NCBI GenBank assembly: GCA_963717935.1
Contig: CAVQXP010000004.1
Coordinates: forward strand, 928,001-992,000
Origin: Candidatus Eiseniibacteriota bacterium
GTDB taxonomy: Bacteria > Eisenbacteria > RBG-16-71-46
Direction: 5' to 3'
DNA: 64,000 bases
The notes under the pieces were generated by a model, which saw only the letters and a list, made by a program, of their open reading frames with translations, did no database searches and was not told the DNA's origin. The position numbers and the translations under genes are program-made. Shown in pieces: positions 9,879 through 61,254 of this stretch. Every line of letters begins with the position of its first letter. Within the stretch, counting starts at the first letter, position 1.

Positions 9879-11725
9879 TCAGTCGTTCGTCGGATCGGTG
9901 AGCAGGATGCGCATGAGCAGCTCGGGGTGCAGCTCGATCCGGTGCCGGTTCCGGTGGCGGGCCAGGAACTGCTTGAGGGCCTGCTCGGCCTTGAGGTTCT
10001 GCACCGACTGGTCGACGTTGTCCTGGACCTCCTCGTAGCGCATCGGCCGGTTCGGCTCGTGAGCCAGCTTCTGCAGCACGAGATAACTCCCCTGCGGATC
10101 GGGCCCCATGACCTCGATGTTGCCGGGACGCATCTCCTCGAAGAGGATCTTGTAGTAGGACGCCGCGCGATCGTCCTCGCGCAGGGAGCGGACCGAGCCC
10201 GAGACGAACCCGGCCAGCGAGTCCGCCCTCAGGATGGAGGCCGCCGGCTCGCCGGCCTTGAGACGGGCCACGACGGAATCGGCGCCCGCCCGGGTTCCGC
10301 GCACCAGGGCCGCGAAATGCACCTTCTGCCACGAGGCGAACTCGTGCTGATGGTCCTGGAAATACTGACGCCGCTCCTCGGGCGTGACCCACAGCCGGGA
10401 CTCCACCGAGTCGGCGAACAGGTGCTCGACCCTGATCTGCTCCTCCCGCTTGGCGACCTGGGAGGTGACCAGCGGATCCTGATCCAGCCCGCGCTCCACG
10501 GCGAATTCGGCCATGAAGGGCTCGAAGACGAACAGGTCGAGCGTCGAGCGGAAGGTGCCGAACGTGCCGACCTTGTTCCGCTGCATCACCGGGATGGCGT
10601 TGTACGCCTCGAGGAAGTCGCCCAGCGCATAGCGGCCGCCGTCCTTCCAGCGGGCCAGCACCCGTGCCGTGTCGGCGGGCTGGAACTCGGGCAGCACGCC
10701 GCTCAGGTCGAGGTCCGGTCGCGAGGAGGTGCTCGGCTTCTGGCGCTCGGTGTCGGCGAACAGGCTCGAGGCCCAGGAGATGTTCGTGGTGTCGTAGGCC
10801 ATGCCGATGCGCCGGCGGATCTGGTCGCGCACCTGTTCGGTGCGCAGGGCGAGCTTCACCTGGCGGACTTCGAGCGCGAACCCCCGCGCGAGCACGTCGA
10901 AGACGGCCTGCGGCTCGACGCGCCGTTCCAGGACCTGCACGAACTGCCAGCCATCCGGGCTCGGGAAGACGCCGGAGAACTGGCCGTCGGCCAGATCGAA
11001 GATCTCCAGCGCGGGGATCGGGTCGAAGTACGTCCGCTCCAGCCAGCCGAGGTCGCCGTCGGGACCCTTGTCGCCGCGGCAGGTCGAGTAGCGTCTTCAC
11101 CGCCAGCGGCCAGCTCAGCCGCCCGGCCAGCACGTCGGCCCGCGCGCGTTCCACCGTGGCGGGGTCGTCCGTGATGATGTGCCGCACGCGCAGGCGCAGG
11201 CGCGCCTGGTCGTAGACGTGCCGGACCTCCTCCTCCGTGACCCGGGCGGAGTCCGACACGAGGCGCGCGAAGACGACGTTGGAGAGCATGCGCTGCCGTG
11301 TCTCCCGCAGCCTGACGCGATCCTCGAAGGTGAACGGCCGGTTCACCTCGCGGGCGAGCGTGGCGAGCACCTCCTTGTTGACCATGCTGTTCAGGAACTC
11401 GAAGCGCCCCGCGCTGTCGGTCCTGGGCCGGTCCAGCATGTACGACGCGTACCAGCGCTCGCGGAACTCGAGCGACCCGGAAGGCCCGGTCGTCGATGCG
11501 TCCGATGACGGTGCTGTCGGGCAGGAACTGGCCCGTGTCCGGGATGCCGTTGTAGTAGTGCAGCGGTTTCCCGTCCTTGCCGCGCGGGGCCGTCCGCGGG
11601 GTCGTGGACGTGGTGGGCTGGGAGGGCTCGACCTTCGGCCGCCAGGACTTGGGCGCGGGGGTCTGGGCCCACGTGACGGAGTACACCAGCAGCAGGCCGA
11701 GGCCGGCAAGCGAGCGGATTCTCAT
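9879..11725 (-). CDS. Exported SurA/PrsA-like parvulin PPIase/chaperone; frameshifts near 11480 and 11090
   Basis: Signal peptide MRIRSLAGLGLLL; LRVRHII, GDLGW-type rotamase segment, EEVQDNV..L..K C-terminal helix; split over three ORFs. Confidence 0.7.
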
Positions 11726-11814
11726 GCGGGTCTCCGGTTGGGTCGTCGGTCCGATTCGGACTGGGTCGGGGGAGTCGAAAGCAGGGACAAGTCTAGGGGG
11801 CGCTCCAACGACGG

Positions 11815-14800
11815 TCAACCGCGAGGACCGGGGCCGCGATCGTCCAGGCCGGCGCCTGACCGGCCCTTGACGTGCCGGCGGCCGCGCAGGCGGTGCTGGA
11901 ACGCGTCGAGGTAGGTGTAGATCACCGGCGTGATGTAGAGCGTGATCGATCTGCGAGAACGCCAGCCCGCCCACCACCGCCAGGCCCAGCGGGCGGCGCG
12001 ACTCCGCGCCGGCGCCGAAGCCGATGGCGATCGGCAGCGTGCCCATCAGCGCGGCGAAGGTGGTCATCATGATCGGGCGGAAGCGGACGCTGCACGCCTG
12101 CAAGATGGCCTCGCGCGCCGGCTTGCCCTCGTTGCGCTCGGCCTCGAGCGCGAAGTCGATCATCATGATGGCGTTCTTCTTCACCAGCCCGACGAGCATG
12201 ATGATGCCGACGTAGGCGTAGATCGTCAGCTCGGTGCGGAAGATCAGCAGCGTGAGCAGCGCGCCGAAGGCCGCGAACGGGAGCCCCGAGAGGATCGTGA
12301 GCGGGTGGATGAAGCTCTCGTAGAGGATGCCCAGCACCAGGTAGATGACCAGGATCGCGAGGACCAGCAGCGCCAGCAGGCCCTGCTGGCTCGCCTGGAA
12401 CACCTGCGCGGTGCCGAAGAAGCCGGTCGTGATGGTCGAGGGCAGCACCTCGCGCGCCGCCCGCTCCACCGCGGCGGTGCCGGTGCCGAGCGCGACGCCC
12501 GGCCGCAGGTTGAACGAGAGCGTCACCGCGGGGATCTGGCCCTGGTGGTTCACCGTGAGCGGGCCCACGCCGGGCGAGAGCTTCGCCACCGCGCCGAGCG
12601 GCACCTGCACGCCGCGCGCCGAGCGCACCGTGAGCAGGGCGAGCGCCGAGGCGTCGCGCTGGTACTGCGGCATCAGCTCCAGGATGACCCAGTACTGGTC
12701 GTTGGAGGTGAGGATGGTCGAGACCTGGCGCGAGCCGTAGGCGTTCAGCAGCGCCTCCTCGATCTGGTAGGCCGTCACACCCAGCGCCGCGGCCCGGTCG
12801 CGGTCGATCGCCACGCGCACCTGCGGGTTCCTGATCTGCAGGTCGCTGGTCACGTCCTGCAGTTCGGGCACGCTGGCCAGCCGGGCGAGCAGGTCCGTGG
12901 CGCCCGCGTAGAGCGCCTGGATGTCCGTGCTCTGCAGGGTGAACTGGTACTGGCTCTTCGAGACGCGTCCGCCGACGCTGATGACCGGCGGGTTGTTGAG
13001 GTAGGCGCGGATGCCGGGGATGCGCGACAGCTTCGGCTGCAGCTCGCGGATGACCTCGTCGGCCGAGAGCTTGCGCTGGGAGCGCGGCTTCAGGCGGAGG
13101 AACATGCGTCCCTGGTTCGAGGTGCCGCTGCCGCCGCCCGCCGAGGATATGAACTCCTCGACGTTCGGGTCCTGCGCGATGATCGCCGGCCACCGCCTGC
13201 TGGTGCCGCACCATGGATTCGAAGGAGGTGCCCTCGGCCGTCTCGGTCGTGCAGTTGATCATCCCGGTGTCCTCGCTCGGGATGAAGCCCTTGGGCACGA
13301 TCCGGAAGAGCACCACGGTGCCGAGCAGGATCGCCAGGGAGGCGATCATCGCCGCGCGGCGGTGGTCCATCACCCAGGCCAGCGTCCGCTCGTAGAGCCC
13401 GAGCGTGGCCAGGTAGCCGTTCTCGATCGCCGCGTAGGCGCGGCCGTGCCGCTGCGCGTGCTCGGGCTTGAGGAAGCGGCTGCAGAGCATGGGCGTGAGC
13501 GTGAGCGAGACGAAGCCCGAGACCAGGATGGCGACGCTGATGGTGACCGCGAACTCGTGGAACAGGCGCCCCAGGATGCCGCCCATCAGCAGCACCGGGA
13601 TGAACACCGCCACCAGCGACAGCGTCATCGAGAGGATGGTGAAGCCGATCTCGCGCGAGCCGTCGAGCGCCGCCTGCAGCGGGCGCTTCCCCATCTCCAT
13701 GTGGCGGTGGATGTTCTCGAGCATCACGATGGCGTCGTCCACCACGAAGCCCACCGAGAGCGTGAGCGCCATCAGCGAGAGGTTGTCGAGGCTGTAGCTC
13801 GAGCTGGTGCATCACCGCGAACGTGCCGACCACCGAGAGCGGCAGCGCCAGGCTCGGGATGATGGTGGCGGGCAGGTTCCGCAGGAACAGGAAGATGACC
13901 AGGACCACCAGCACCAGCGTGAGCAGCAGCGTGAACTGCACGTCCTTGACCGAGTTGCGGATGGACTGCGAGCGGTCGTAGAGGATGTGGGCCTCGACCG
14001 AGGCGGGCAGCTGCGCGCGGAGCCGCTCGATCTGGGCCCGCACGTCCTTCGCCACCTGCACCGTGTTCGTGCCGGGCTGGCGCTGGATCGCGAGCATGAC
14101 CGCGCGCTGGCCGCCGATCCAGGCCGCCTGGCGGTTGTTCTGCACGTCGTCGATCACGCGCCCGAGGTCGCGCAGGCGCACCGCCCGGCCGTTGCGCCAG
14201 GCCACGATCAGGTCGCCGAAGCCCCGCGCGTCCCGCAGCTCGCCGGAGGCCTGCACGGTGACGGTGCGGTTCGGTCCCCACAGGATGCCGGTCGGCAGGT
14301 TCACGTTGCCGGCCGAGATCACGCCGGGCAGGTCGTCGATGCCGATCCCGAGCGAGCGCAGCGCGTGCGGGTCGAGCTGCACGCGCACCGCGTACTTCTG
14401 GGAGCCGTAGACCTGCACCTGGGCCACGCCGCTCACCATCGAGAGCCGCTGGGCGAGGAAGCCCTCGGCGTACTCGTTCAGGCTCGACAGCGGCATGAGC
14501 TTCGAGGTCAGCGGCACGAAGAGGATCGGGGAGTTCGCCGGGTTCACCTTCTGGTAGGAGGGCGGGATGATGCCCGTCGGGAGCCGGCGCAGCACCTGGG
14601 CGATGGCCGCGTTCACGTCCTGCGCGGCGGCGTCGATGTCGCGGTCGAGCACGAACTGCAGCGTGATGCTGGTCGAGCCCTGGCCCGAGGAGGAGGTCAT
14701 CACCTCGACGCCGGGGATGGTCGAGAACTGCTTCTCGAGCGGGGTGGCGACGGCCGAGGCCATGGTCTCGGGCGAGGCGCCGGGCAGGCTCGCGTTCACC

Positions 14801-14937
14801 GAGATGATCGGGTAGTCCACGTTGGGGACGTCGCTCACCGGCAGCAGGGTGTAGCCGATCGCGCCGAAGAACAGGATGCCGATCATGACCAGCGTGGTCG
14901 CGACCGGCCGCTGGATGAAGAGCGCGGAGAAGTTCAC
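11815..14937 (-). CDS. RND efflux permease (AcrB/MdtB-C family); frameshifts near 13800, 13190 and 11948
   Basis: FIQRPVATTL, LPVSDVPNVDYP, GFVVDDAIVMLENI, GLVKKNAIMMIDFA, RFRPIMMTT. Confidence 0.92.
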
Positions 14938-16061
14938 GGGCGGGATTCCTGCCCGGGCTTCCTCACCAGCACCTTCACGCCCGGCGCGAGCCGGAACTGC
15001 CCGTCGGTCACCACCGTCTCGCCGGGCTCGAGCCCGCTCGACACCACGGTGGTCACTTCGTCGGCGCGCTTCACCGTGACCGGCCGCGGCGAGGCGGTCG
15101 AGTCGGCGTTGAGCACGTAGACGTACGTGCCCTGCTGGCCGGTCGTGACGGCGGGGGTGGGCACGACGATGGCGCCGGGCTCGACCGCGAACACCAGCCG
15201 CACCTCGACGAACTCGCCAGGCCACAGCGCCCCGTCCCGGTTCGGCAGCTCGCCCTTGAGCAGCAGCGTGCCGCTGGCCGGGTCCACCGCGTTGTCCACG
15301 AACGCCAGCCGGCCCACGAGCTCGAGCGAGTCGCCGGGCGACTGGCGCACGTACACCTTCGGGGCGCTGGCGCGGTGGCGCTGCACCAGCGGGATCTGGT
15401 CCTGGGACACCGTGAAGCGCACGCGGATGGGCTGCACCTGGTTGATGGTCACGAGCGGCTCGCTGGTGGCGGACTTGACCAGGTCGCCGACGTGCACGTT
15501 GAGGCTGCCGGTGCGCCCGGAGATGGGCGCGCGGATGCCCGCGAACTCGAGGTCGAGCCTGGCCTTCGCGACCGTGCCCGAGTCGGTCCGCACCGCCGCC
15601 TGCAGGGCCTCGGCCGCGGCCGTCGCACGGTCGTGGTCCGCCGTGGAGATGAGCTGGTCGGCGAGCAGCCGGTCGGCGCGCTCGGCGTCGAGCCGCGCGC
15701 TGCGCCACTGCGCCAGGTCGCGGGCGAGCACGCCGCTCGCCTGCTCGAGCGCCGCGCGGAAGGGGCGCGGGTCCAGCTCGATCAGCGTCTGGCCCGCCCG
15801 GACCTCCTGTCCCTCGCGGAAGGCGATGCGGGTGACGACACCGCCGACCTGCGAGCCCACGTCCGCGGTCTCGACCGGCTCGACCGTGCCCGTGGTGACG
15901 ACCTGCACCGGCATGGCGCGCCGCTCGACGCGCGCGACCGTGACGGCGACGCGTGGCTGGCGCTGTGCCTGTCTCGCCCCGCAGCCCGGAAGGACGGCGA
16001 GCAGCAGACCCGCGACGCAGGTTGCGAGCAGTGCCCGTGCAGGACGATGGGTGGACGCCAT
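14934..16061 (-). CDS. RND periplasmic adaptor (MdtA-like MFP), lipoprotein
   Basis: LPGC lipobox-like, IRAPISGRTG, VDNAVDPASGT, GLEPGETVVTDG. Confidence 0.92.
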   Translation of the reverse strand: MASTHRPARALLATCVAGLLLAVLPGCGARQAQRQPRVAVTVARVERRAMPVQVVTTGTVEPVETADVGSQVGGVVTRIAFREGQEVRAGQTLIELDPRPFRAALEQASGVLARDLAQWRSARLDAERADRLLADQLISTADHDRATAAAEALQAAVRTDSGTVAKARLDLEFAGIRAPISGRTGSLNVHVGDLVKSATSEPLVTINQVQPIRVRFTVSQDQIPLVQRHRASAPKVYVRQSPGDSLELVGRLAFVDNAVDPASGTLLLKGELPNRDGALWPGEFVEVRLVFAVEPGAIVVPTPAVTTGQQGTYVYVLNADSTASPRPVTVKRADEVTTVVSSGLEPGETVVTDGQFRLAPGVKVLVRKPGQESRP

Positions 16062-16280
16062 CCCGCGGGGGGATGGCGAAGGCCGGTCGAGCGCTTCGAA
16101 TCGCATGGGGTTCGGTCCCGGTCGTCCCGCGCGGCGCGCAGGCCCGTGGGTGGAGTGACGTGCGGCTGGGAACTTGGAATTCCGCGATTATACAACGAGC
16201 GCAGCGGGCACGGGCAGCCGCGGGGCCGGACACAGACAAGCGCCGGGGCGGACAAGACGGGCGCCGGGGCAGGCAAGCAA

Positions 16281-16358
16281 GCGGTGGGGCGTGGGGATGT
16301 TCGGAGGGCGAGCGTGTGGGTAATCAGCCGTCCTCCGAACATCCCCACGCCCCGCCGC
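16281..16358 (+). repeat. Long hairpin element, family 1 copy A (29-bp stem, 20-nt loop GAGCGTGTGGGTAATCAGCC)
   Basis: Arms 16281-16309 and 16330-16358 pair with two G-U; loop shared with 60542-60561; degenerate partial copy at ~16402-16459. Confidence 0.85.
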
Positions 16359-16463
16359 CGCTCGATTCACTCTCGCACCCGCCGCCGTTCGAACCGAAGG
16401 ACGAGCGTGCGGACGATCAGCCCGTCCTCCGGACATCCCCACGCCCCGCCGCCGCTCGACCTG

Positions 16464-17927
16464 TCAGGGTTTCGTCAGGGGCGCTCCCGCTGCCCGAAGC
16501 CCTTCCGGCGGGTCCTTCACCAGCGCCTCGAGCGCCGCCTCGTGGATGACCGTCGCTCCGCACGCCGCGCGTGCGCGATCGGCCAGCGCGCGCATCAGCC
16601 GCCCGCCCTCCTCGCCGTACCAGCGGTCCGCCACCAGGTCCCGGACCTCCGCGAACGATCGCCCGCGGCCCGGCAGCACCGTGATCACCCGCGCCACCGC
16701 CCAACCCTCCGCGACCTCGTCCGGTCCGAGCACCGCGCCGATGCCCGCGTGCAGGGCGCGCGCGAAGAGCGCGCTGTCCACCGCGGCGCTCACGTCGACC
16801 GTCCACTCCACCCCGGCACGCCGCGCACCCGCGGCCAGGTCCTCGGCCTCGGTCGCGCTCGCCAGGCGCAGCGCCATCGAGGCCGCCTCCCGGCGGCTCT
16901 GGAGCACCACGCGCACGAGACGCATGCGCGTCGGCAGCATCCAGTCCCGCTCGGTGTCGCGGTAGAAGCGCGACAGGGTGAGCGAGTCCTCGGCGATGCG
17001 CGCGTAGACCTCGCGCTCGACCAGGCACGAGACGTCGTTGAGCTCGCGCTGGTCCGCGAGCCGCTCCGCGAGGTCCGGCCGGCGCTCGAGGCCGCGCTCC
17101 CCGCCCTCACGGCGCAGGAGCCGCTCGAACAACCCGTTCATCACGAGTTCGCGCACCTCGGCCGCCGAGGTGACACGGGGACGGTAGATCGGGTTCAGCC
17201 GCCGCCACGAGGCGAGCAGGTCGCAGGCCCGGAAGTCGCCGGCGGACGAGCGCGCCACGACCCGGCCGGTGTCGGCGGGGTCCACCTCGGGGCTGGCGTC
17301 CAGCATGCGCAGCTGGGCGGAGAGAGAGGAGTCCGAGGTGGGGCGCTTGAGGGCGGCGAAGCCGAGCGCGAGCCGGGCCAGCAGCGAGTCGTCGTAGACC
17401 GGGCTGAGCCTCTCCATCGCCAGCTCCCGCGCCGCCAGGCCCAGCGCCGCGCGATCGAGCGAGTCACCCGCCGGTCCCAGAACGAGGCGCGTCGCGGTGA
17501 GAGCCGAGTCCAGCATGGCCTCGACCACGAGCCGGTCGCGCAGGGTCTCGAACGCCGCGCTGTCCCGGGCCGTCCACGTCCAGCGCTCGCGGGCAGCCAT
17601 CAGGCCCAGGGCCTCCCTGTCGAGCAGCAGATCGAGAAACCGCCGCGCCCCGGCCGGGGTAAGGGAATCAGGCCGTGCGGGCGGCGCGAGCCGGGACCAG
17701 GCGCGGGCGAAGCGCGCGCGGCCGATCTCGCGGCCGGGCTCGCCGGGCAGGCCGCTCCCGATGACCGCCAGGACACTGTCGGGGAGGCCGGCGGGCGCGC
17801 CGGACGAGACCGCCTCCGCGTGGGCGGCCGTCCGCACCGGGAGCGGCACGGCCGGCATCAGGAGGACCAGCCACAGGAGCGCCCGGAACGCGGGGAGGGA
17901 GGGACTCGGTCTTGCGGCGCGCGGCAT
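16464..17927 (-). CDS. Exported SurA/PrsA-like chaperone (degenerate PPIase), probable paralog of 9879-11725
   Basis: Signal peptide; PDSVLAVIG vs PDSTVIGRID; PADTGRVVAR vs PADTARVLAR; RSFAEVRDLV. Confidence 0.6.
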   Translation of the reverse strand: MPRAARPSPSLPAFRALLWLVLLMPAVPLPVRTAAHAEAVSSGAPAGLPDSVLAVIGSGLPGEPGREIGRARFARAWSRLAPPARPDSLTPAGARRFLDLLLDREALGLMAARERWTWTARDSAAFETLRDRLVVEAMLDSALTATRLVLGPAGDSLDRAALGLAARELAMERLSPVYDDSLLARLALGFAALKRPTSDSSLSAQLRMLDASPEVDPADTGRVVARSSAGDFRACDLLASWRRLNPIYRPRVTSAAEVRELVMNGLFERLLRREGGERGLERRPDLAERLADQRELNDVSCLVEREVYARIAEDSLTLSRFYRDTERDWMLPTRMRLVRVVLQSRREAASMALRLASATEAEDLAAGARRAGVEWTVDVSAAVDSALFARALHAGIGAVLGPDEVAEGWAVARVITVLPGRGRSFAEVRDLVADRWYGEEGGRLMRALADRARAACGATVIHEAALEALVKDPPEGLRAAGAPLTKP

Positions 17928-18047
17928 GGTGCCTCCTGGGACGGGTGTCGTCGGCGAGCCCGCAGTCTAGTCCGCACGCTCGTCGGGCCGCCACCCGGCG
18001 CGCGTCGGAACCCGTGTCCCGGGGTGCGGATCCTCACCTTCATCCGC

Positions 18048-18077
18048 TTGACCCTGTTCGAGAGGCATCCCTACACT
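18048..18077 (+). promoter_or_regulatory. sigma70-like promoter 9 nt before the C25 peptidase ATG
   Basis: TTGACC-18 nt-TACACT. Confidence 0.55.
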
Positions 18078-18086
18078 GCCCCCTTC

Positions 18087-21000
18087 ATGCGACCACTCCC
18101 GCTGCTCCTGAAGGCCGTCACGGCCTTCGCGCTGCTCCTCCTGCCGGGCGGAGCGGTGCGCGCCCAGTCCCTGCGCGTGGTCGCCGTCGACGAGCGCGGC
18201 GTCACCCTGCAGCTGAGCCTCCCCGGCTATCGGCTCTCGGCGCCGCTTGCCGACGGGCGCGTCGAGCTGAGCGTGCCCGGCTACGCCGTCACGAGCCTGC
18301 CGGGGCGGCCTCACCTGCCCTATGCGCAGACGCTGGTGGCGCTGCCGCCGGGCGCCGGGGCGCTGGCCCGGGTCGTGGACCTGGGCGAGGAGGAGGCGCG
18401 CGACAGCCTGCGGCTCGCGCTGGGCGCGAAGCCGGTGATGCGGGACGGGGCAGGGGGGTTCGGCCCGTCGCCCGGGCTCGAGCCGGTGCCGCCCATCCTC
18501 GATGGGCCGTGGCCCGCCTCGCCGGTCGAGCTGGGCGAGCCGGCCGTCGTGCGCCGCCAGCGCATGGTGGCCGTGCAGGTCCGGCCATTCCGCTACGACG
18601 AAGCCACCGGCCGGCTCTGGGTGCGCCGCTCGCTCACCGTGCGCGTGGACTTCACCGGGGTCGCGCCGGGTGCGGCCACGGGCGTGGCCGTGACCGACCG
18701 CCACTGGGAGCCCGTCTTCCGCAACGCGCTCGCCAACTACGAGCAGGGCCGCCGCTGGCGCGGGCCGCAGCGGGCCGCGGCCGGGCTCTTCGGGGACCGC
18801 GCGGCCCTGCCCGCGGCCGTGCGCGCCGTCGCCGGCTTCGATGAGAGCGAGCCCGAGGTGCGCATCAAGGTGGACTCGACCGGGGTCTATGCCTTCCCGT
18901 ACGCCGACCTCGTCGCACAGGGCTACCCCACCGCGGTGCCCGTGGGCGAGGTGAGCCTGCACCGGCACGAGTACGTGGGCCCGGCCGACCCGCCCTACGT
19001 GACGATCGAGCTGCCCGTCGAGGTGGACGACGCCAACGCCAACGGCGTCTTCGACTCGGGCGACGCCATCGTCGCCTTCGTCGCCAACTGGGTCGAGCGC
19101 TCGGGCGTGACCTCGGTGATGCAACGCGACTGGGGCGACGCCGAGGTGGTCTTCGCCACGCGGCTCGTGGGCGGCGCGGGCCTGCGTCTCCCCACGCGCG
19201 CCGGCTGGCGGGACGCCACGAGCCCCGCGCTGCCCGCCTCGTATCCGTGGACCCGGCGCTGGGAGCGCTCGTTCAGCTACTTCGCCTACCCCTCACCGAT
19301 CGACACGGCGACCGTGGACCGCTTCCTGTGGACGTCCTACTTCCTCTACTACAGCCGGCCTGACTCGTTCCGCTTCGAGACCAACGATCTCGATGCGACG
19401 CGCCCGGTCACGTTCCGCACGCGGCTGCTGGGCAAGGACAACAACGCGCACGTCCTGTTCGGGCAGATCCGGAACGGCCTGGGCCAGCTCAACATGGTGG
19501 TGGACTCGTTGCTGTGGTATGGCAAGGAGGCGCGGACGGTGAGCGTCACGCTTCCTCCTGGCGCGCTGACGGAAGGGGCGACGAACAGCCTCGCGCTCTG
19601 GGGCAAGGGCTCGACCCTGCCTCCCGACCCCGTGACCAACGCGCTGGTGGGCGTCGGGCTCGACTGGTTCGAGACCACCTGCTGGCGATCCTACCGCGCA
19701 CTCAATGGCTACCTCGCGGCCAACAGCGGTGACGCCGCGGGCCTCTACCAGGTGCACGCCACCGGCTTCGGCTCGCCGGCGATCCGCGTCTACGACGTGA
19801 CGGACATCGTGAGCCCGGTGCGGCTGGCGGTGGACGCGAGCCACATCGCCCCGGCCGGCAGCGAGTACACGCTCGACTTCCAGGACTCCACCGGCGCGAG
19901 CCCGCGCCGGTACGTCGTCTTCGACCGTCCGAAGCTGCTCCCCGCCGGGCGCTACACGCCGGTCACGCGGCGGCAGCTCACCGCGGCGACCGGAGAGCGC
20001 GACTACGTGGTCATCGTGCCCGAGGCCTGGACGACCGCGGTGGACCCGCTGGTCGCGCTGCGCCAGTCCCAGGGGCTCGGCACGGTCGTGGCCCCGCTCG
20101 AGTCGGTGAACGACGAGTTCAACGGCGGACGCAAGTCCCGCTGGGCCATCAAGCGCTTCCTGCGCTACGCCATGGAGAGCTGGAACGCGCGCTTCGTCGT
20201 GCTCGTGGGCGACGGCAGCACCGACGGGCGGAACCTGCTCGGCACCGCAGGCACCGATTGGGTGCCGGTCGCGCTCATCCCCGGACCGGTCTCCTCGGGC
20301 ACGTCCGGGCTCGAGATGATCCCGGCCGACCCCTGGTACGGCTGGTGCCTGGACGAGGACCCGGCCTGCCTGACCGCGGCCCTGATCGAGCCGGACCTCT
20401 ACGTGGGCCGTCTGCCCGTGAACTCGCTCCAGCAGGCGCGCGACGTGGTGGCGAAGCTGGTGGCCTACGCGGCCTTCGACCCCGACGAGACCTGGCGGCG
20501 CCGCATGGTGCTGCTCGCCGACGACTGCTACTCGGGCGTGAGCACCTTCGGCGGGGGCGGTGGCACCGGCTACTGCTACCGCAGTTACGAGATCGTCTTC
20601 CGCCTGCTCAACCAGGCGGTGTCGGCGGTGATCGCCGACTCGTCGGGGATGAGCCTGGCGCGGCCCGAACTGCTCGATCTGCGCTCGTACCTGACGGACC
20701 CCGCGCTCTACGTGGTCAATGGGCCCGGGGACACCTGCCGGGTGGGGACGGAGGTGGCCGAGGGCACCCTGCGCGCGGTCTTCAACCCGGTGCTCTTCCA
20801 GAAGCTCAACGAGGGCGCGCTCTGGTGGAACTACCAGGGCCATGCGAATCCCTACGTGCTCTCCCACGAGGTCTTCTATCGGAACCAGGGGTCGTTCCAG
20901 GACCGCGACAACTTCATGAACGACGGGAAGCTGTTCCTGTTCTCGGCCTTCTCCTGCCATGCGAATGCGTTCTCGGACGTGTCCGAGGGCAATCCCTCGC

Positions 21001-22310
21001 TCGGTCCCTCGCTGGGCGAGAACATGCTCACGTTGCCGTTGCGCGGAGCCATCGCCTCGTGGGCCTCGAGCGGCTTCGAGATCGTGCCCTCGAGCGGTTC
21101 CTACCACCTGAACGTCGAGTTCGCCCGCTCGCTCTTCAGCGATCCGCCGCACGACGACGAGCTGGGGCGCGGGCTCGCCGACCGCGGCGCGCGCGTGCCG
21201 CTGGGCGAGGTCATCGCGCTGACCATGCTCAACTACCTGCCCACGGTGCGGCAGTCGTCGTCCGAGCGCGGGGTCGGGCTCACCTACAACCTGCTCGGCG
21301 ATCCCGCGACCCGGTTGTGGGTGGGGCCCGCGCAGATCACGGTGACGGCGAACGGCCAGCCCGTGACGAGCGGCCAGCCGGTGCGGCTCGCGAGCGGCGG
21401 CGACACGCTGCGACTCGAGGCGGAGCTGGTATCCAACGTCGAGATCCGGTCCGTCGAGCTGCTGCAGTCGGGCCGCGACGGGACGATGGCGGTGCCGCCC
21501 GAGCTCTACCAGCTCACCCCGCCCTTCCCCGACACCACGGCGACGGGCCAGGGCGGGCGACGCTACCACCTCTCGTATGTCACGACGCTCGCCAGCAGCT
21601 CGCTGCGCTACACGCTGCGGATCACCGACCGCTACGGCGTGACCCAGTCGTTCGACGTCGTGTTCGAGTTCGAGACCGGGTTGTTCAGTGACGGCGTGCC
21701 CGTCCAGGAGGACGACCCGGTCGCCCCGGACGCCCCGCTCGCGTTGCTCGTGCTCTCGCCCGGGCAGCTCGATCCCGACAGCCTGAGCCTCTCGGTGGAC
21801 GACGCGCCGCAGCCCTTCACCTGGGAGTTCGCGCGCGGTGACACCACCGGCCGGCAGTACTGGCTGCGCTGGCTGCACGCGCCCTATGGCGAAGGCCGTC
21901 ACGCCGTGCTGCTCGAGGCTCCCGTGGACCAGCGCCTGGTCCACCACTTCCGGGTCGAGACCCGCTTCGCGTTGCGCGACGCGCTGGCCTTCCCGAACCC
22001 GTTCGACGACGAGCTGGGCACACGCTTCGTCTTCACCCTGACCGGGGAGACCCCGGCCGATCTGCTGGTGCGCGTGTACACGGTGAGCGGGCGGCGCGTG
22101 TACGAGACCCGGCTCGACGGTCTCTCGCCCGGCCATCACGAGATCCCCTGGGACGGTCTCGATGAGGAGGGACAGAAGCTTGCGAACGGCATCTACTTCT
22201 ACAAGCTGGTGGCCCACGGCTCCTCCGGCACCTCGGCGTACGATGGCCGCCTGGTCAAGCTCCGCCGGCCGCGACGCTCCACCGACCCGGCGAGCGGCAC
22301 GACCCCGTAG
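18087..22310 (+). CDS. Peptidase C25 (gingipain/PorU-like) with propeptide and C-terminal FlgD/CTD-like domain
   Basis: Signal peptide; propeptide (PGRPHLP, VRPFRYD); VLVGDG, YVGRLPV, NYQGHA (His), FSCHAN (Cys), YNLLGDPA; FPNPF...WDGLDEEG..LANGIYFYKL. Confidence 0.88.
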   Translation: MRPLPLLLKAVTAFALLLLPGGAVRAQSLRVVAVDERGVTLQLSLPGYRLSAPLADGRVELSVPGYAVTSLPGRPHLPYAQTLVALPPGAGALARVVDLGEEEARDSLRLALGAKPVMRDGAGGFGPSPGLEPVPPILDGPWPASPVELGEPAVVRRQRMVAVQVRPFRYDEATGRLWVRRSLTVRVDFTGVAPGAATGVAVTDRHWEPVFRNALANYEQGRRWRGPQRAAAGLFGDRAALPAAVRAVAGFDESEPEVRIKVDSTGVYAFPYADLVAQGYPTAVPVGEVSLHRHEYVGPADPPYVTIELPVEVDDANANGVFDSGDAIVAFVANWVERSGVTSVMQRDWGDAEVVFATRLVGGAGLRLPTRAGWRDATSPALPASYPWTRRWERSFSYFAYPSPIDTATVDRFLWTSYFLYYSRPDSFRFETNDLDATRPVTFRTRLLGKDNNAHVLFGQIRNGLGQLNMVVDSLLWYGKEARTVSVTLPPGALTEGATNSLALWGKGSTLPPDPVTNALVGVGLDWFETTCWRSYRALNGYLAANSGDAAGLYQVHATGFGSPAIRVYDVTDIVSPVRLAVDASHIAPAGSEYTLDFQDSTGASPRRYVVFDRPKLLPAGRYTPVTRRQLTAATGERDYVVIVPEAWTTAVDPLVALRQSQGLGTVVAPLESVNDEFNGGRKSRWAIKRFLRYAMESWNARFVVLVGDGSTDGRNLLGTAGTDWVPVALIPGPVSSGTSGLEMIPADPWYGWCLDEDPACLTAALIEPDLYVGRLPVNSLQQARDVVAKLVAYAAFDPDETWRRRMVLLADDCYSGVSTFGGGGGTGYCYRSYEIVFRLLNQAVSAVIADSSGMSLARPELLDLRSYLTDPALYVVNGPGDTCRVGTEVAEGTLRAVFNPVLFQKLNEGALWWNYQGHANPYVLSHEVFYRNQGSFQDRDNFMNDGKLFLFSAFSCHANAFSDVSEGNPSLGPSLGENMLTLPLRGAIASWASSGFEIVPSSGSYHLNVEFARSLFSDPPHDDELGRGLADRGARVPLGEVIALTMLNYLPTVRQSSSERGVGLTYNLLGDPATRLWVGPAQITVTANGQPVTSGQPVRLASGGDTLRLEAELVSNVEIRSVELLQSGRDGTMAVPPELYQLTPPFPDTTATGQGGRRYHLSYVTTLASSSLRYTLRITDRYGVTQSFDVVFEFETGLFSDGVPVQEDDPVAPDAPLALLVLSPGQLDPDSLSLSVDDAPQPFTWEFARGDTTGRQYWLRWLHAPYGEGRHAVLLEAPVDQRLVHHFRVETRFALRDALAFPNPFDDELGTRFVFTLTGETPADLLVRVYTVSGRRVYETRLDGLSPGHHEIPWDGLDEEGQKLANGIYFYKLVAHGSSGTSAYDGRLVKLRRPRRSTDPASGTTP

Positions 22311-58137: not shown

Positions 58138-58197
58138 GCGAGGACGAAGCACGGCGGGCCGGTCCGCAGGGACCGGCCCGCCGTGCTTCGTCCTCGC
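58138..58197. terminator. Hairpin family 3 copy B; perfect 28-bp stem between convergent genes
   Basis: GCGAGGACGAAGCACGGCGGGCCGGTCC-GCAG-GGACCGGCCCGCCGTGCTTCGTCCTCGC. Confidence 0.8.
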
Positions 58198-58918: not shown

Positions 58919-60274
58919 TCAGCGCTTCGGCACGAGGAGCAGGATCGCGTGGTGCGCCGGATCCCTCAGCCAGTCCGCCCAGAAGTCGAACGCCGGCGAC
59001 ACGCTGGTGTCGAAGCGGCGGCGGTACTCGGCCCAGAACACGTCGTTGCCCCAGAGCGTCTGGGAGGCGAGCGAGGTGCAGAGCACGATGAGCGCCGCCG
59101 GGTCCTGCCGTACGCCGTCGACGAGCGCCTGGGGCATCGGCCCACCCATCATCCAGAGCAGGTTGTGGCGAATGTTGTCGTAGATCTCGCGCGGGATGGC
59201 CCCGTCGAGCAGGTCGGTGATGGTCTGTCTCAGGATCGCTGCGAGGCCCCGCGGGTCGGCGGCCTGCTGCGGGTCGGGTGGTGGGTAGAGGCGCGCGAAA
59301 CCCGGATCATCCAGCAGTGAGTACTGGAAGCGCGTGACGAGCGGACGGGTCGGCGGGCCCCAGTCCAGCTTGGCCTGCCCGCCCAGCAAGAGCGTGGCCA
59401 TGAAGAACGACGGGTGGAGCGTGTCCGAAAGCGCCGGCGCCATGAGGCCCAGGACGGCCACTGGCGCATCCACCCCGGGCTGCTTCAGGACGACCGTGAC
59501 CGAGTCGAGACGCGGAGCCTGGATGGCGGGGGGGCGGTCGCCCGCGGGCAGGTCGCCGAACTCGGTGGCGACGATGGAGTGCAGGTCGAGGCCCGAGAGG
59601 TCACCGGCCAGTGCGAGCACGCCGTTCGCGGGGACGTAGGCCCGGGCGATGGCCTGCTGCACGCTGGCGGGCGTCTCGCGGTCCAGGCCCTTCGCCGCGG
59701 TCAGCGCGGCGATGGCGTCCTTGTCCAGGCCGCGGGCGTACTCGCGCACCTGCCAGTAGAGCATCTGGTCCGCGGTGCCGGAGTACTTCTCCCGCACCAT
59801 CCGGTGCACCGTGGCGAGCGAGCTGCGCAGGTCTTCGTCGGTCACCGTCACGCCGCGCATCCGCATGGCCACCTGGTGAAGCATCCCGGGGAATTGCGAG
59901 GTCGTGCCGGTCTCGTTGAACAGGGTCTGGCGCTGGGTCACGCGCAGGCTCCAGCCCTGCGGCCGAAGGCTCTCCATCTCGCCGCGCGTGCGCTCCGGCG
60001 TGTCGCCCGCCGAGGCGGTGAAGGCCACCTCGGCCAATAGCGAGGCCAGCAGCGGCCGGTCGGCGGGATCGTGGTCCAGCCCGATGCGGTAACCCCAGGA
60101 GATGGAGATCGCGCGCGTGCCGGGCACGTCGCGCGCCACGACCTCGAGGCCGTTGGGCAGCGTCCAGCGGTCCACGGTCGTGCCGTCTTCGAGTTTGCTG
60201 GGCTCGGCCTGGGTGGCCCGCGCCGCGAACAGCACGCACAGGATCAGCAGGGTGCGGATTGCGTATCGGCTCAC
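58919..60274 (-). CDS. Exported M16 (insulinase-like) peptidase homolog without the HxxEH zinc motif
   Basis: SD GAGGAG + GTG; signal peptide; TLPNGLEV, YVPANGVLALAGD; LASLLAEVAF at the HxxEH position. Confidence 0.7.
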   Translation of the reverse strand: MSRYAIRTLLILCVLFAARATQAEPSKLEDGTTVDRWTLPNGLEVVARDVPGTRAISISWGYRIGLDHDPADRPLLASLLAEVAFTASAGDTPERTRGEMESLRPQGWSLRVTQRQTLFNETGTTSQFPGMLHQVAMRMRGVTVTDEDLRSSLATVHRMVREKYSGTADQMLYWQVREYARGLDKDAIAALTAAKGLDRETPASVQQAIARAYVPANGVLALAGDLSGLDLHSIVATEFGDLPAGDRPPAIQAPRLDSVTVVLKQPGVDAPVAVLGLMAPALSDTLHPSFFMATLLLGGQAKLDWGPPTRPLVTRFQYSLLDDPGFARLYPPPDPQQAADPRGLAAILRQTITDLLDGAIPREIYDNIRHNLLWMMGGPMPQALVDGVRQDPAALIVLCTSLASQTLWGNDVFWAEYRRRFDTSVSPAFDFWADWLRDPAHHAILLLVPKR

Positions 60275-60398
60275 GTGAACTCCTCGGCTGCGGCGGCCCG
60301 GGCCGCCGGGATGATCGTGGACGGGCTTCCATTCTAGAGGCTCCGGGCGCATCGCGCATCTCCGCCAGCCTCCGCGCTGGCGCGAGCGCCAGGGGGCA

Positions 60399-60542
60399 GG
60401 CAGGGATGGCCGGAGGGCGAGCAGGGACGGCCGAAGGTGGGCAGGGATGGCCGAAGGCGGGCAGGGATGGCCGAGGGACGGGCAGGGACGGCCGAAGACA
60501 GGCAGGGACGGCCGAAGGGTGGGCAGGGATGGCCGAAGGGCG
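60399..60542 (+). repeat. Tandem array of seven 20-21 nt units (GGCAGGGAYGGCCGAAGG..)
   Basis: Units start at ~60399, 60420, 60440, 60460, 60481, 60501 and 60522; no spacers. Confidence 0.9.
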
Positions 60543-60586
60543 AGCGTGTGGGTAATTAGCCGTCCTTCGGCCATCCCTGCCCGCCC
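60517..60586 (+). repeat. Long hairpin element, family 1 copy B (25-bp stem, loop GAGCGTGTGGGTAATTAGCC)
   Basis: Arms 60517-60541 and 60562-60586 pair with two G-U; loop 19/20 identical to 16310-16329. Confidence 0.85.
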
Positions 60587-60590
60587 CCCC

Positions 60591-60655
60591 CGTGCGATAC
60601 GTGCACTGTGCGACACGTGCGCCGTGCGGCACTTGCGCCGTGCCGCGCCGTGCGC
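60591..60655 (+). repeat. Degenerate ~16-nt tandem repeat, about 4 copies (YGTGCGRYACGTGCRC)
   Basis: cgtgcgatacgtgcac / tgtgcgacacgtgcgc / cgtgcggcacttgcgc / cgtgccgcgccgtgcgc. Confidence 0.6.
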
Positions 60656-60693: not shown

Positions 60694-61254
60694 ATGCACG
60701 AGCACGATGAATCCGAGGTCCGCCGTCTGGTGCGCGAGGCCGTGGACCGCGCGCTCGGCCCGGAGTCCGCCGCCGATCCGCGACCCGCGAGCCCCGCCTC
60801 CCGCCGCGTCGCCCTCGGCTCCGATCACGGCGGGTTCGAGCTCAAGGAGATCCTCCGCCAGTATGTCGCGGACGAGCTGGGCTGGGAGGTCCACGACTGC
60901 GGCACGCACTCCACCGACGCGGTCGACTACCCGGACTATGCCGCCGCGGTGGCGCGCGAGGTCGCGGCCGGCCGCTGTGCCCTTGGCATCGTGGTGGACG
61001 CGGCGGGCATCGGATCCGCGATGGCGGCGAACAAGATCGCCGGCGTGCGCTGCGCCGTGGGCCACGACGACCGCACCGTGCTCAACGGCCGCGAGCACAA
61101 CGACGCCAACATGCTCTCGCTTGGCGCGCGCGTCGTGAACCGGGGACTCGCGCAGCGCCTCGTGCGCCTGTTCCTCACGACCCCCTTCGCCGGCGGCCGT
61201 CACGAGCGCCGGGTGCAGAAGATCATGGCGCTCGAGCGCGGCTCCGGCCGGTAG
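60694..61254 (+). CDS. rpiB: Ribose-5-phosphate isomerase B family
   Basis: GSDHGGFELK, VDYPD, GIGSAMAANK, REHNDAN, GGRHERRV. Confidence 0.92.
   Translation: MHEHDESEVRRLVREAVDRALGPESAADPRPASPASRRVALGSDHGGFELKEILRQYVADELGWEVHDCGTHSTDAVDYPDYAAAVAREVAAGRCALGIVVDAAGIGSAMAANKIAGVRCAVGHDDRTVLNGREHNDANMLSLGARVVNRGLAQRLVRLFLTTPFAGGRHERRVQKIMALERGSGR

Follow-up and report, generated by a model that had tools for sequence, protein, structure and literature searches.

REPINs of Pseudomonas and Enterobacteria consist of two conserved, inverted REP ends with a less conserved spacer between them (PMC3116915). The hairpin family of Candidatus Eisenbacteria that is the subject of this work resembles the REPINs and REP-BIME elements with their RAYT proteins in being extragenic, in having tens of copies, each with a long hairpin and compensatory changes, in forming ordered tandem clusters and in being lineage-specific (PMC3116915). 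The conserved portions are different: REPINs keep their ends and vary in the spacer, whereas in the present family the apex and the loop are kept, the mid-stem varies and the foot (GCGGCGGGGC) is moderately kept. The family also differs from REPINs in that there is no adjoining RAYT gene, the Y1 homologue looks altered, the copy number is lower and dispersed copies are never near-identical. When the features of REP/REPIN-RAYT systems are compared one by one, dispersed palindromes with tandem clusters are found, but conserved ends, adjacency to a RAYT gene and a protein with the HUH motif, the tyrosine and a RAYT-level score are not.

In E. coli and yeast genetics, quasipalindromes are sites at which template switching makes mutations frequent, imperfect repeats being perfected by the copying of one arm (PMC7202029). 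This fits the symmetrised internal loops, the compensated blocks and the loop inversion described below. Quasipalindrome mutation is a mechanism known from reporter hotspots and not a repeat family; in the present case some 45 natural elements would be continually subject to it. MITEs and palindromic repeats such as Correia/NEMIS, RPE and ERIC are also short, non-coding, dispersed, sometimes in frame within genes and polymorphic for presence or absence. They differ from the present family, which lacks a core bounded by terminal inverted repeats and in which a single hairpin makes up the entire element. No parent IS was recognised for it, and among the copies viewed none carried an ORF between family ends.

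Results

Two long hairpins with a shared loop

The window is the whole stretch of 64,000 nucleotides that was analysed, corresponding to positions 928001-992000 of contig C4 of the host genome (G000). This genome comprises 3.02 Mb in 5 contigs, with a G+C content per contig of 64-72% (71.5% for the contig of the window). The window holds the following hairpins and associated repeats, where R1 is the covariance model described in the next section:

16221..16291, + strand: 3.3 tandem units of 21 nt adjoining the left arm of copy 1, within the segment that congeners lack
16281..16358, + strand: hairpin copy 1 (B-type loop), 29-bp stem, 20-nt loop at 16310-16329, R1 score 86.7 bits
16390..16450, + strand: partial second unit in tandem, loop GAGCGTGCGGACGATCAGCC, 9-bp apical stem, right arm and tail nearly repeating those of copy 1
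60395..60539, + strand: left arm of copy 2 repeated in tandem (20-nt units, 7.1 times), the last unit alone having a right-arm partner
60517..60586, + strand: hairpin copy 2 (B-type loop), 25-bp stem, 20-nt loop at 60542-60561, R1 score 86.1 bits
60590..60643, + strand: 16-nt tandem repeat, 3.4 units, directly 3' of copy 2

Both hairpins had been pointed out in the first-pass annotation, and both are indeed present, with 29 and 25 contiguous pairs, respectively, and no mismatches. Each stem includes two G-T (G-U in RNA) pairs. The loops, GAGCGTGTGGGTAATCAGCC in copy 1 and GAGCGTGTGGGTAATTAGCC in copy 2, agree at 19 of their 20 bases, which bears out the shared loop noticed earlier, and the 20-nt loop pattern, with up to 3 mismatches allowed, has two matches in the window and none in 100 dinucleotide shuffles, so the pair is beyond chance. 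The stems had been described as differing in sequence. They do differ, but the lower stems are diverged homologues and not unrelated sequences, and conservation continues beyond the loop for about 7-11 bp of the stem (GGAGGGC/GYCCTCC). The partial unit at 16390-16450, the arm repeats at 60395-60539 and the short repeats at 16221-16291 and 60590-60643 are features beyond the earlier annotation. The loop of the partial unit, GAGCGTGCGGACGATCAGCC, also follows the copy at C4:1645724 of the host genome.

According to crude gene calls combined with Pfam assignments, both hairpins are intergenic, and the flanking genes are as follows:

14934..15914, - strand: called ORF of 326 aa, upstream of the AcrB-type transporter gene
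16464..17927, - strand: PPIC-type rotamase gene, its stop codon 14 nt from the partial unit
58919..60274, - strand: M16-peptidase-like gene, transcribed away from copy 2
60694..61254, + strand: rpiB-like gene (LacAB_rpiB), with copy 2 about 110 nt upstream in the same orientation

Copy 1 is located in a 549-bp gap between two minus-strand genes, and its loop-defined strand is antisense to both of them. Copy 2 lies between divergent genes, the M16-like peptidase gene on the minus strand and rpiB on the plus strand. A T-run after the hairpin is seen at neither window copy. For 14900-18000 of the window, no public RNA run was listed, and the shares of the DNA runs were all small, at 0.17 or less.

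Two further observations concern the genes around copy 1. In the region 10856-16239 (minus strand), the ACR_tran profile covers just positions 1-380 of its 1021 in the ORF 13090-16239; the remainder may be encoded in a different frame by the ORF 10856-13105, pointing to a frameshift, an error of assembly or two separate genes. On the plus strand, at 18024-22310, there is a large gene the product of which combines a Peptidase_C25 (gingipain-type) domain and the corresponding propeptide with an FlgD_ig domain at the C-terminus.

The hairpins belong to a family with a conserved apex

A search for the loop across the genome, as the first-pass annotation had proposed, shows that the two copies are not a private pair and belong to a family of about 45. 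The nhmmer profile of the apex gives 23 hits at E<=0.05 in the host genome, and all but one or two of these fall outside the crude gene calls. Fifteen intact copies (13 from the host genome and 2 from the congener G004) can be aligned without gaps. In this alignment the loop ends and the apical stem are invariant or nearly so, with the pattern GGAGGGC-GAGCGTG...AGCC-GYCCTCC. The covariance model R1, built from these 15 copies, has 21 matches in the host genome, corresponding to 18 distinct places, as three perfect palindromes score on both strands. The R1-type (A/B) loops fall into a few types, which recur across species.

A sister type, referred to as the E type, shares the apex (GGGCGAGC) but has the loop GCATGGTGCCTCT; the host genome contains about 25 copies of it. 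The E and A/B copies have a common lower-stem design, including an asymmetric internal loop, and are therefore branches of one superfamily, with at least about 45 copies per genome. The general layout of the element, which is 70-90 nt long, is a moderately conserved foot (GCGGCGGGGC...GCCCCGCCGC), a fast-changing mid-stem, the conserved apex GGGCGAGC and a loop of 13-20 nt.

The predominance of this family is also seen in a census of all hairpins of the host genome with a contiguous stem of at least 22 bp. There are 21 of these, and 19 carry the family apex: 8 have A/B loops and 11 have (G)CATGGTGCCTC(T) on GGGCGAGC...GCTCGCCC, the other 2 being unrelated. On contig C4, 34 hairpins with a stem of at least 18 bp are found, versus none in two mononucleotide shuffles. 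One unrelated hairpin lies in the window, at 58138-58197 between convergent genes, and has a 28-bp perfect stem with a 4-nt loop (GCAG); in the orthologous gap of G004 there are two tandem E-type units instead. The other long hairpin outside the family, at C1:102019-102083, has a 28-bp stem and the loop AGCCATTGC.

Tandem sets occur in the host genome at C4:161325-161496, 211074-211220 and 272544-272714 and at 16281-16450 of the window. Duplications of one arm beside a complete hairpin, with or without the loop, are found on the 5' side (60395-60539 of the window, C4:272544-272714 and locus L155 of G004) as well as on the 3' side (16390-16450 of the window and L152 of G004). The dispersed copies are much more diverged: leaving tandem neighbours aside, the closest pairs agree at 23-24 of 30 stem bases and a single pair at 28 of 30, with a median of 18 of 30. 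As there are no near-identical dispersed copies, there is no sign of a recent burst. A mosaic of fragments is observed at C1:60700-61000 (L002/L009), where a full copy (C1:60826-60895) lies amid a right half and a left-foot fragment in opposite orientation.

A role of the arms as guides has also been considered. The 15-mers of 43 copies of the host genome hit essentially their own locus, tandem neighbours or other family members, which excludes a guide-like role within the genome.

The family is confined to one genus

Matches of R1 are found in five of the seven congeners (16, 12, 7, 3 and 3 matches); the two congeners with no match are 54% and 81% complete. Outside the genus there are 7 matches in G019, a genome of another genus, which represent a looser relative, and in the other 32 relatives there are none, save one unrelated long hairpin in G015. 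The exact 15-mer of the E type has a similar distribution, with 20 occurrences in the host genome and 18, 12, 9, 8 and 1 in congeners. It has single hits in ten genomes of other genera, about as frequent as those of the reversed-pattern control, and folding of eight of these hits gives no hairpin. The family is thus confined to one genus of Candidatus Eisenbacteria, with a looser relative in one other genus.

When the loop pattern is searched across named genomes, 9 loci are found. Four are family hairpins on a single record of a Candidatus Eisenbacteria bacterium (L079-L082), and the 5 loci in other phyla are not hairpins. The possibility that the element is a known Rfam family, raised earlier as an alternative, is not borne out: at gathering thresholds the whole window yields one tRNA only, and a permissive search of 15900-16500 returns only generic miRNA-precursor models, at no more than 41 bits against cut-offs of 73-168. 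The literature mentioning Eisenbacteria, in the portion considered, deals with ecology and metabolism, and that portion contains no report on repeats.

Copies are gained or lost between congeners

The flanking genes of orthologous sites align at 80-94% identity, which allows the sites of the two window copies to be compared. The segments that differ are:

16202..16444, unstranded: indel segment holding copy 1 and the partial unit; G005 has 2 bp here, and 16164-16463 corresponds to 96 bp in G004
60391..60619, unstranded: indel segment holding copy 2 and the arm repeats; 15 bp in G004

For copy 2, the interval 60361-60634 corresponds to 45 bp in G005, and 60367-60643 to 5 bp in G007. Neither window copy is present at the orthologous sites of the compared congeners (G004 and G005 for copy 1; G004, G005 and G007 for copy 2). 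The copies at C1:60851 and C4:1645724 of the host genome are also absent from relatives, and conversely copies of G005 (L028, L036) and G004 (L148, L150, L152) are absent from the host genome. Other copies are shared, those at C4:57501, 161424, 1562696, 179822 and 1341531 and at C2:365772 having counterparts in G004. Copies have therefore been gained or lost between congeners, where an absence in relatives could reflect a deletion there as well as a gain in the genome that has the copy.

One clean event is an insertion of about 108 bp in G005 (L028), which comprises a whole 84-nt hairpin and is flanked by a 15-bp direct repeat. Among the clean insertions inspected this is the only clear direct repeat, and none that is significant flanks 12 copies of the host genome; target-site duplication, of fixed length at each copy in MITEs, is not consistent here. 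The 15-bp repeat may belong to the element, as similar flanks recur at other copies.

The site of the tandem hairpins at C4:1645690-1645840 differs in content between congeners. In G004 (L109, C1:229700-232800) and G005 (L110) it is occupied by about 2.3 kb with a 744-aa ORF, and in G003 and G007 by about 20 bp only.

Placement relative to genes and replication

About 38 loci of the host genome were classified by their neighbouring genes, with crude gene calls: 8-9 lie between convergent genes, 9 between divergent genes and 18-19 between co-directional genes, and 1 lies inside an ORF. These counts are rough; one locus was corrected by eye, and a window-based coding scan, which was noisy and contradicted the rpiB call, was set aside. 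Of the co-directional loci, 11 have the loop strand in sense orientation and 8 in antisense. The copies are thus placed in any intergenic gap and in either orientation, in classes of about 1:1:2, as expected for random intergenic placement. Many copies are located just past stop codons or between convergent genes. With respect to replication, judged from GC skew, the loop strand of 11 loci is on the leading-strand sequence and that of 6 is on the other, which is not significant. On contig C4 the cumulative GC skew is lowest near 0.5 Mb and highest near 2.04 Mb, which suggests that the contig holds the origin and the terminus.

One family copy, at C4:728514-728585 (L096 2015-2086), is in frame within a 589-aa ORF. 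It sits between the upstream region and the RNase_H_2 (YprB/MrfB-like) domain, adjoining the C-terminus of an MrfA-like helicase, and is found in the same place in G004, G003 and G007.

Two known kinds of hairpin site are rejected as the identity of the family. An intrinsic (Rho-independent) terminator does not agree with the missing T-run at the window copies and with the occurrence of about 9 of 38 loci between divergent genes. Integron attC sites do not agree with copies that are single and dispersed between ordinary conserved genes and not in cassette arrays, nor with the foot GCGG...CCGC, which we take to be different from the attC core.

Compensatory changes and the proposed copying of arms

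In the 15-copy alignment the helix has 26 pairs. Its cells are paired in 90% of cases, and shifting the 3' partner by 1-3 columns lowers this to 44-50%; both sides have changed in 21 of the 26 pairs, and none of 500 shuffles reaches any of the observed measures. The compensation between the stems, taken by the first-pass annotation as the mark of a functional structured RNA, is therefore real, but that conclusion is unsupported, as copying of DNA arms would fit the following patterns better.

The common form of the stem has an asymmetric internal loop, with GCAGAC on the 5' arm against TTGC (given as the complement of the 3' arm), and is found in the host genome and in G003, G004, G005 and G007. 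At C4:1459211 of the host genome TTGC is present on both arms, and at C4:211077, as read directly from the sequence, GCAGAC is present on both arms. Similarly, the copy at 2101530 of G004 has CGGC on both arms, and its tandem neighbour has GCAGAC against CGGC. Internal loops that have become symmetric in both versions imply that one arm has been copied onto the other, in either direction.

Comparison of orthologous copies points in the same direction. The copy at C4:1562696 and its counterpart in G004 (L144) have at least 7 stem differences, all of them compensated; both stems are perfect, and the loop and the apex are identical. The copy at C2:365772 and its G004 counterpart (L146) have the same flanks but loops of opposite orientation, the reverse complement of one loop matching the other at 11 of 13 positions when the alignment is read by eye. 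Among the E-type copies of the host genome, 14 of 25 are purely Watson-Crick in the aligned arms. Judged by these patterns and by the one-sided duplications of arms described above, arm-to-arm copying of DNA would explain the compensation better than selection for an RNA fold, and template switching is suggested as its mechanism. The apex and the loop are far better kept than the stems, a difference for which template switching alone would be insufficient and which points to some selected function.

The excess of G-U pairs is limited to one branch

It had also been noted that all non-Watson-Crick pairs are G-U pairs on the plus strand. This is correct for the two window copies, but it is weak as a property of the family. 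Minimum free energy folding of 45 A/B copies from seven genomes gives 113 G-U pairs versus 10 A-C 1x1 mismatches, by a method that favours G-U. In a register that treats both alike the A/B type has 55 G-U versus 29 A-C, and in a mismatch-blind arm-to-arm alignment of the 45 copies there are 70 versus 30. Many of the A/B G-U pairs are one inherited pair beside the loop, which is G-U in 9 of 15 sequences and G-C in the other 6. The same blind count for 43 E-type copies gives 26 G-U versus 29 A-C. The G-U excess is therefore rejected as proof of a strand-specific fold, being biased by the folding method, largely due to one inherited pair and absent in the E type. A strand-specific single-stranded form would not be a property of the family as a whole, although it is possible for the A/B branch.

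The Y1-transposase homologue

The host genome has a single Y1_Tnp (PF01797) gene, at C4:653561-653899 (L083 1447-1968, minus strand). Such a gene is present in 38 of 41 relatives (a count that includes the unpublished genome G026), whereas the hairpins are restricted to the genus. The first-pass annotation had named a RAYT or TnpA(Y1) gene flanked by copies as something to look for. This adjacency is absent: no family hairpin is found within 1.5 kb of the Y1 gene, either in the host genome (with filters off) or in 13 genomes searched with R1, and no suitable inverted repeats flank the gene.

With the NCBIfam models, the Y1 protein scores 75.9 bits for IS200 and 32.7 bits for REP_Tyr_transpos (RAYT), the cut-off of which is 80. 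When aligned to the ISDra2-type TnpA structures (2xm3/2fyx), it has RVH in place of HVH, and an arginine occurs at the tyrosine column of the segment ...QQYIENQ. The aligned first histidine of HUH and that tyrosine column are presumably the catalytic residues of TnpA. Thus, the Y1 protein looks like a domesticated, possibly inactive transposase homologue; it appears to be a poor candidate for the transposase of the hairpins, though it could bind them. No other candidate for a mobiliser emerged. The earlier suggestion of a REP/HUH-type element is in part retained: a REP-type non-autonomous element is the closest description, the copies being dispersed, insertion-polymorphic and partly tandem, but the HUH part is unsupported in view of the properties of the Y1 gene and its protein.

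Discussion

The hairpins constitute a genus-restricted, dispersed, extragenic palindromic repeat family, which is nearest to REPINs yet departs from REP/RAYT systems in most of the features compared. On balance, leaving aside what mobilises them, they are probably REP/REPIN-like extragenic repeats that are kept palindromic by template switching. In this mechanism imperfect palindromes would be made perfect again and again within the DNA itself. As replication proceeds, the growing strand would switch to the opposite arm as its template (quasipalindrome template switching), or the hairpin would undergo an equivalent internal conversion. A change in one arm would then be erased or copied to the opposite arm, which would generate block-wise 'compensatory' changes with no selection on an RNA fold. 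The apex and the loop would be kept either by selection, as a recognition site for a putative spreading or binding factor, or by turnover from a few source copies, and some copies probably serve incidentally as transcription stops or mRNA ends.

Several other explanations have to be weighed against this one. Structured non-coding RNAs, or RNA hairpins that act in cis (for instance to stabilise mRNAs or as stem-loops that bind proteins), with a loop that is read by a protein, would account for the helix in which 21 of 26 pairs have changed on both sides and which is far better paired than the controls (90% versus 44-50%), for the conserved loop and apex, and for the G-U pairs, with almost no A-C, in the window copies and other intact A/B copies. 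This proposal is nevertheless considered distinctly improbable, as the orientation to genes is mixed (11 sense versus 8 antisense), copy 1 being antisense to both neighbours, copies come and go between congeners, and partial and arm-only tandem units occur. Perfect Watson-Crick pairing moreover prevails in the stems, the E type shows no excess of G-U, a loop is inverted between orthologues, no promoter-sized flank is conserved, and there is no match in Rfam. A REP/REPIN-like element that a Y1 (HUH) transposase of the IS200/RAYT kind moves in trans, in the form of a single-stranded DNA hairpin, is rated only marginally better and is also improbable. It agrees with a long extragenic hairpin that is dispersed, sometimes in tandem, with compensatory changes as in REPINs (PMC3116915). 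The host genome also has exactly one Y1_Tnp gene, and 38 of 41 relatives have one as well, which is typical of RAYTs, and the G-U excess of the A/B type can be counted in its favour. Against it, neither hairpins nor inverted repeats are near the Y1 gene, which is order-wide whereas the hairpins are genus-restricted; the protein scores as IS200 and not as RAYT, with RVH and an arginine at the presumed catalytic positions; and the conservation is the reverse of that of REPINs, the apex being kept and the arms being variable, with an E type that has no G-U excess.

It is also conceivable, though unlikely, that the hairpins have been recruited by the host at gene ends, as bidirectional terminators with no U-tract or as sites of a nucleoid or hairpin-binding protein. 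The many copies past stop codons or between convergent genes speak for this, as does the apex being kept in orthologues while the stems drift, and one convergent gap has an unrelated 28-bp hairpin in the host genome and two family units in G004, as if any strong hairpin serves. Such a role is difficult to reconcile with the roughly 9 of 38 loci, copy 2 among them, between divergent genes, with the missing T-run, with the dispensability of copies and with classes of about 1:1:2, as for random placement. The idea that an apex module of about 40 nt is mobile and lands in the tips of existing hairpins, the lower stems coming from the target, fits the conserved apex on differing stems and those hairpins that exceed the usual foot, for example the 34-bp stem at C4:1645690. 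It is very improbable and largely refuted, as the lower stems are mostly homologous, with a common foot and internal loop, the insertion in G005 brought the whole 84-nt hairpin, and the inspected empty orthologous sites hold no hairpin with a matching stem. A more far-reaching proposal is that the hairpins are not junk but long-established and under selection at each locus, as a conserved apex on a stem of free sequence, the pairing of which would be maintained by arm copying. The apex would be read by a dedicated binder, possibly the Y1 homologue. This is speculative and held to be about as improbable as the RNA explanation; if true, it would be a domesticated system of a hairpin and its binder outside Proteobacteria, with a logic of conservation opposite to that of REPINs.

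The reading as template-switching repeats has consequences for how such data are interpreted. Twenty-one covarying pairs out of 26 together with a conserved loop mimic a textbook structured RNA, and DNA palindromes that copy their arms can give the same pattern. Arm copying would mislead covariation tests in which substitutions are taken to be independent. The copies described here would be natural instances in which quasipalindromes have become symmetric, in either direction. The family adds an undescribed repeat family to a phylum known only from metagenomes, and, if the apex is a binding site, it would be a handle on a putative hairpin-recognising protein.
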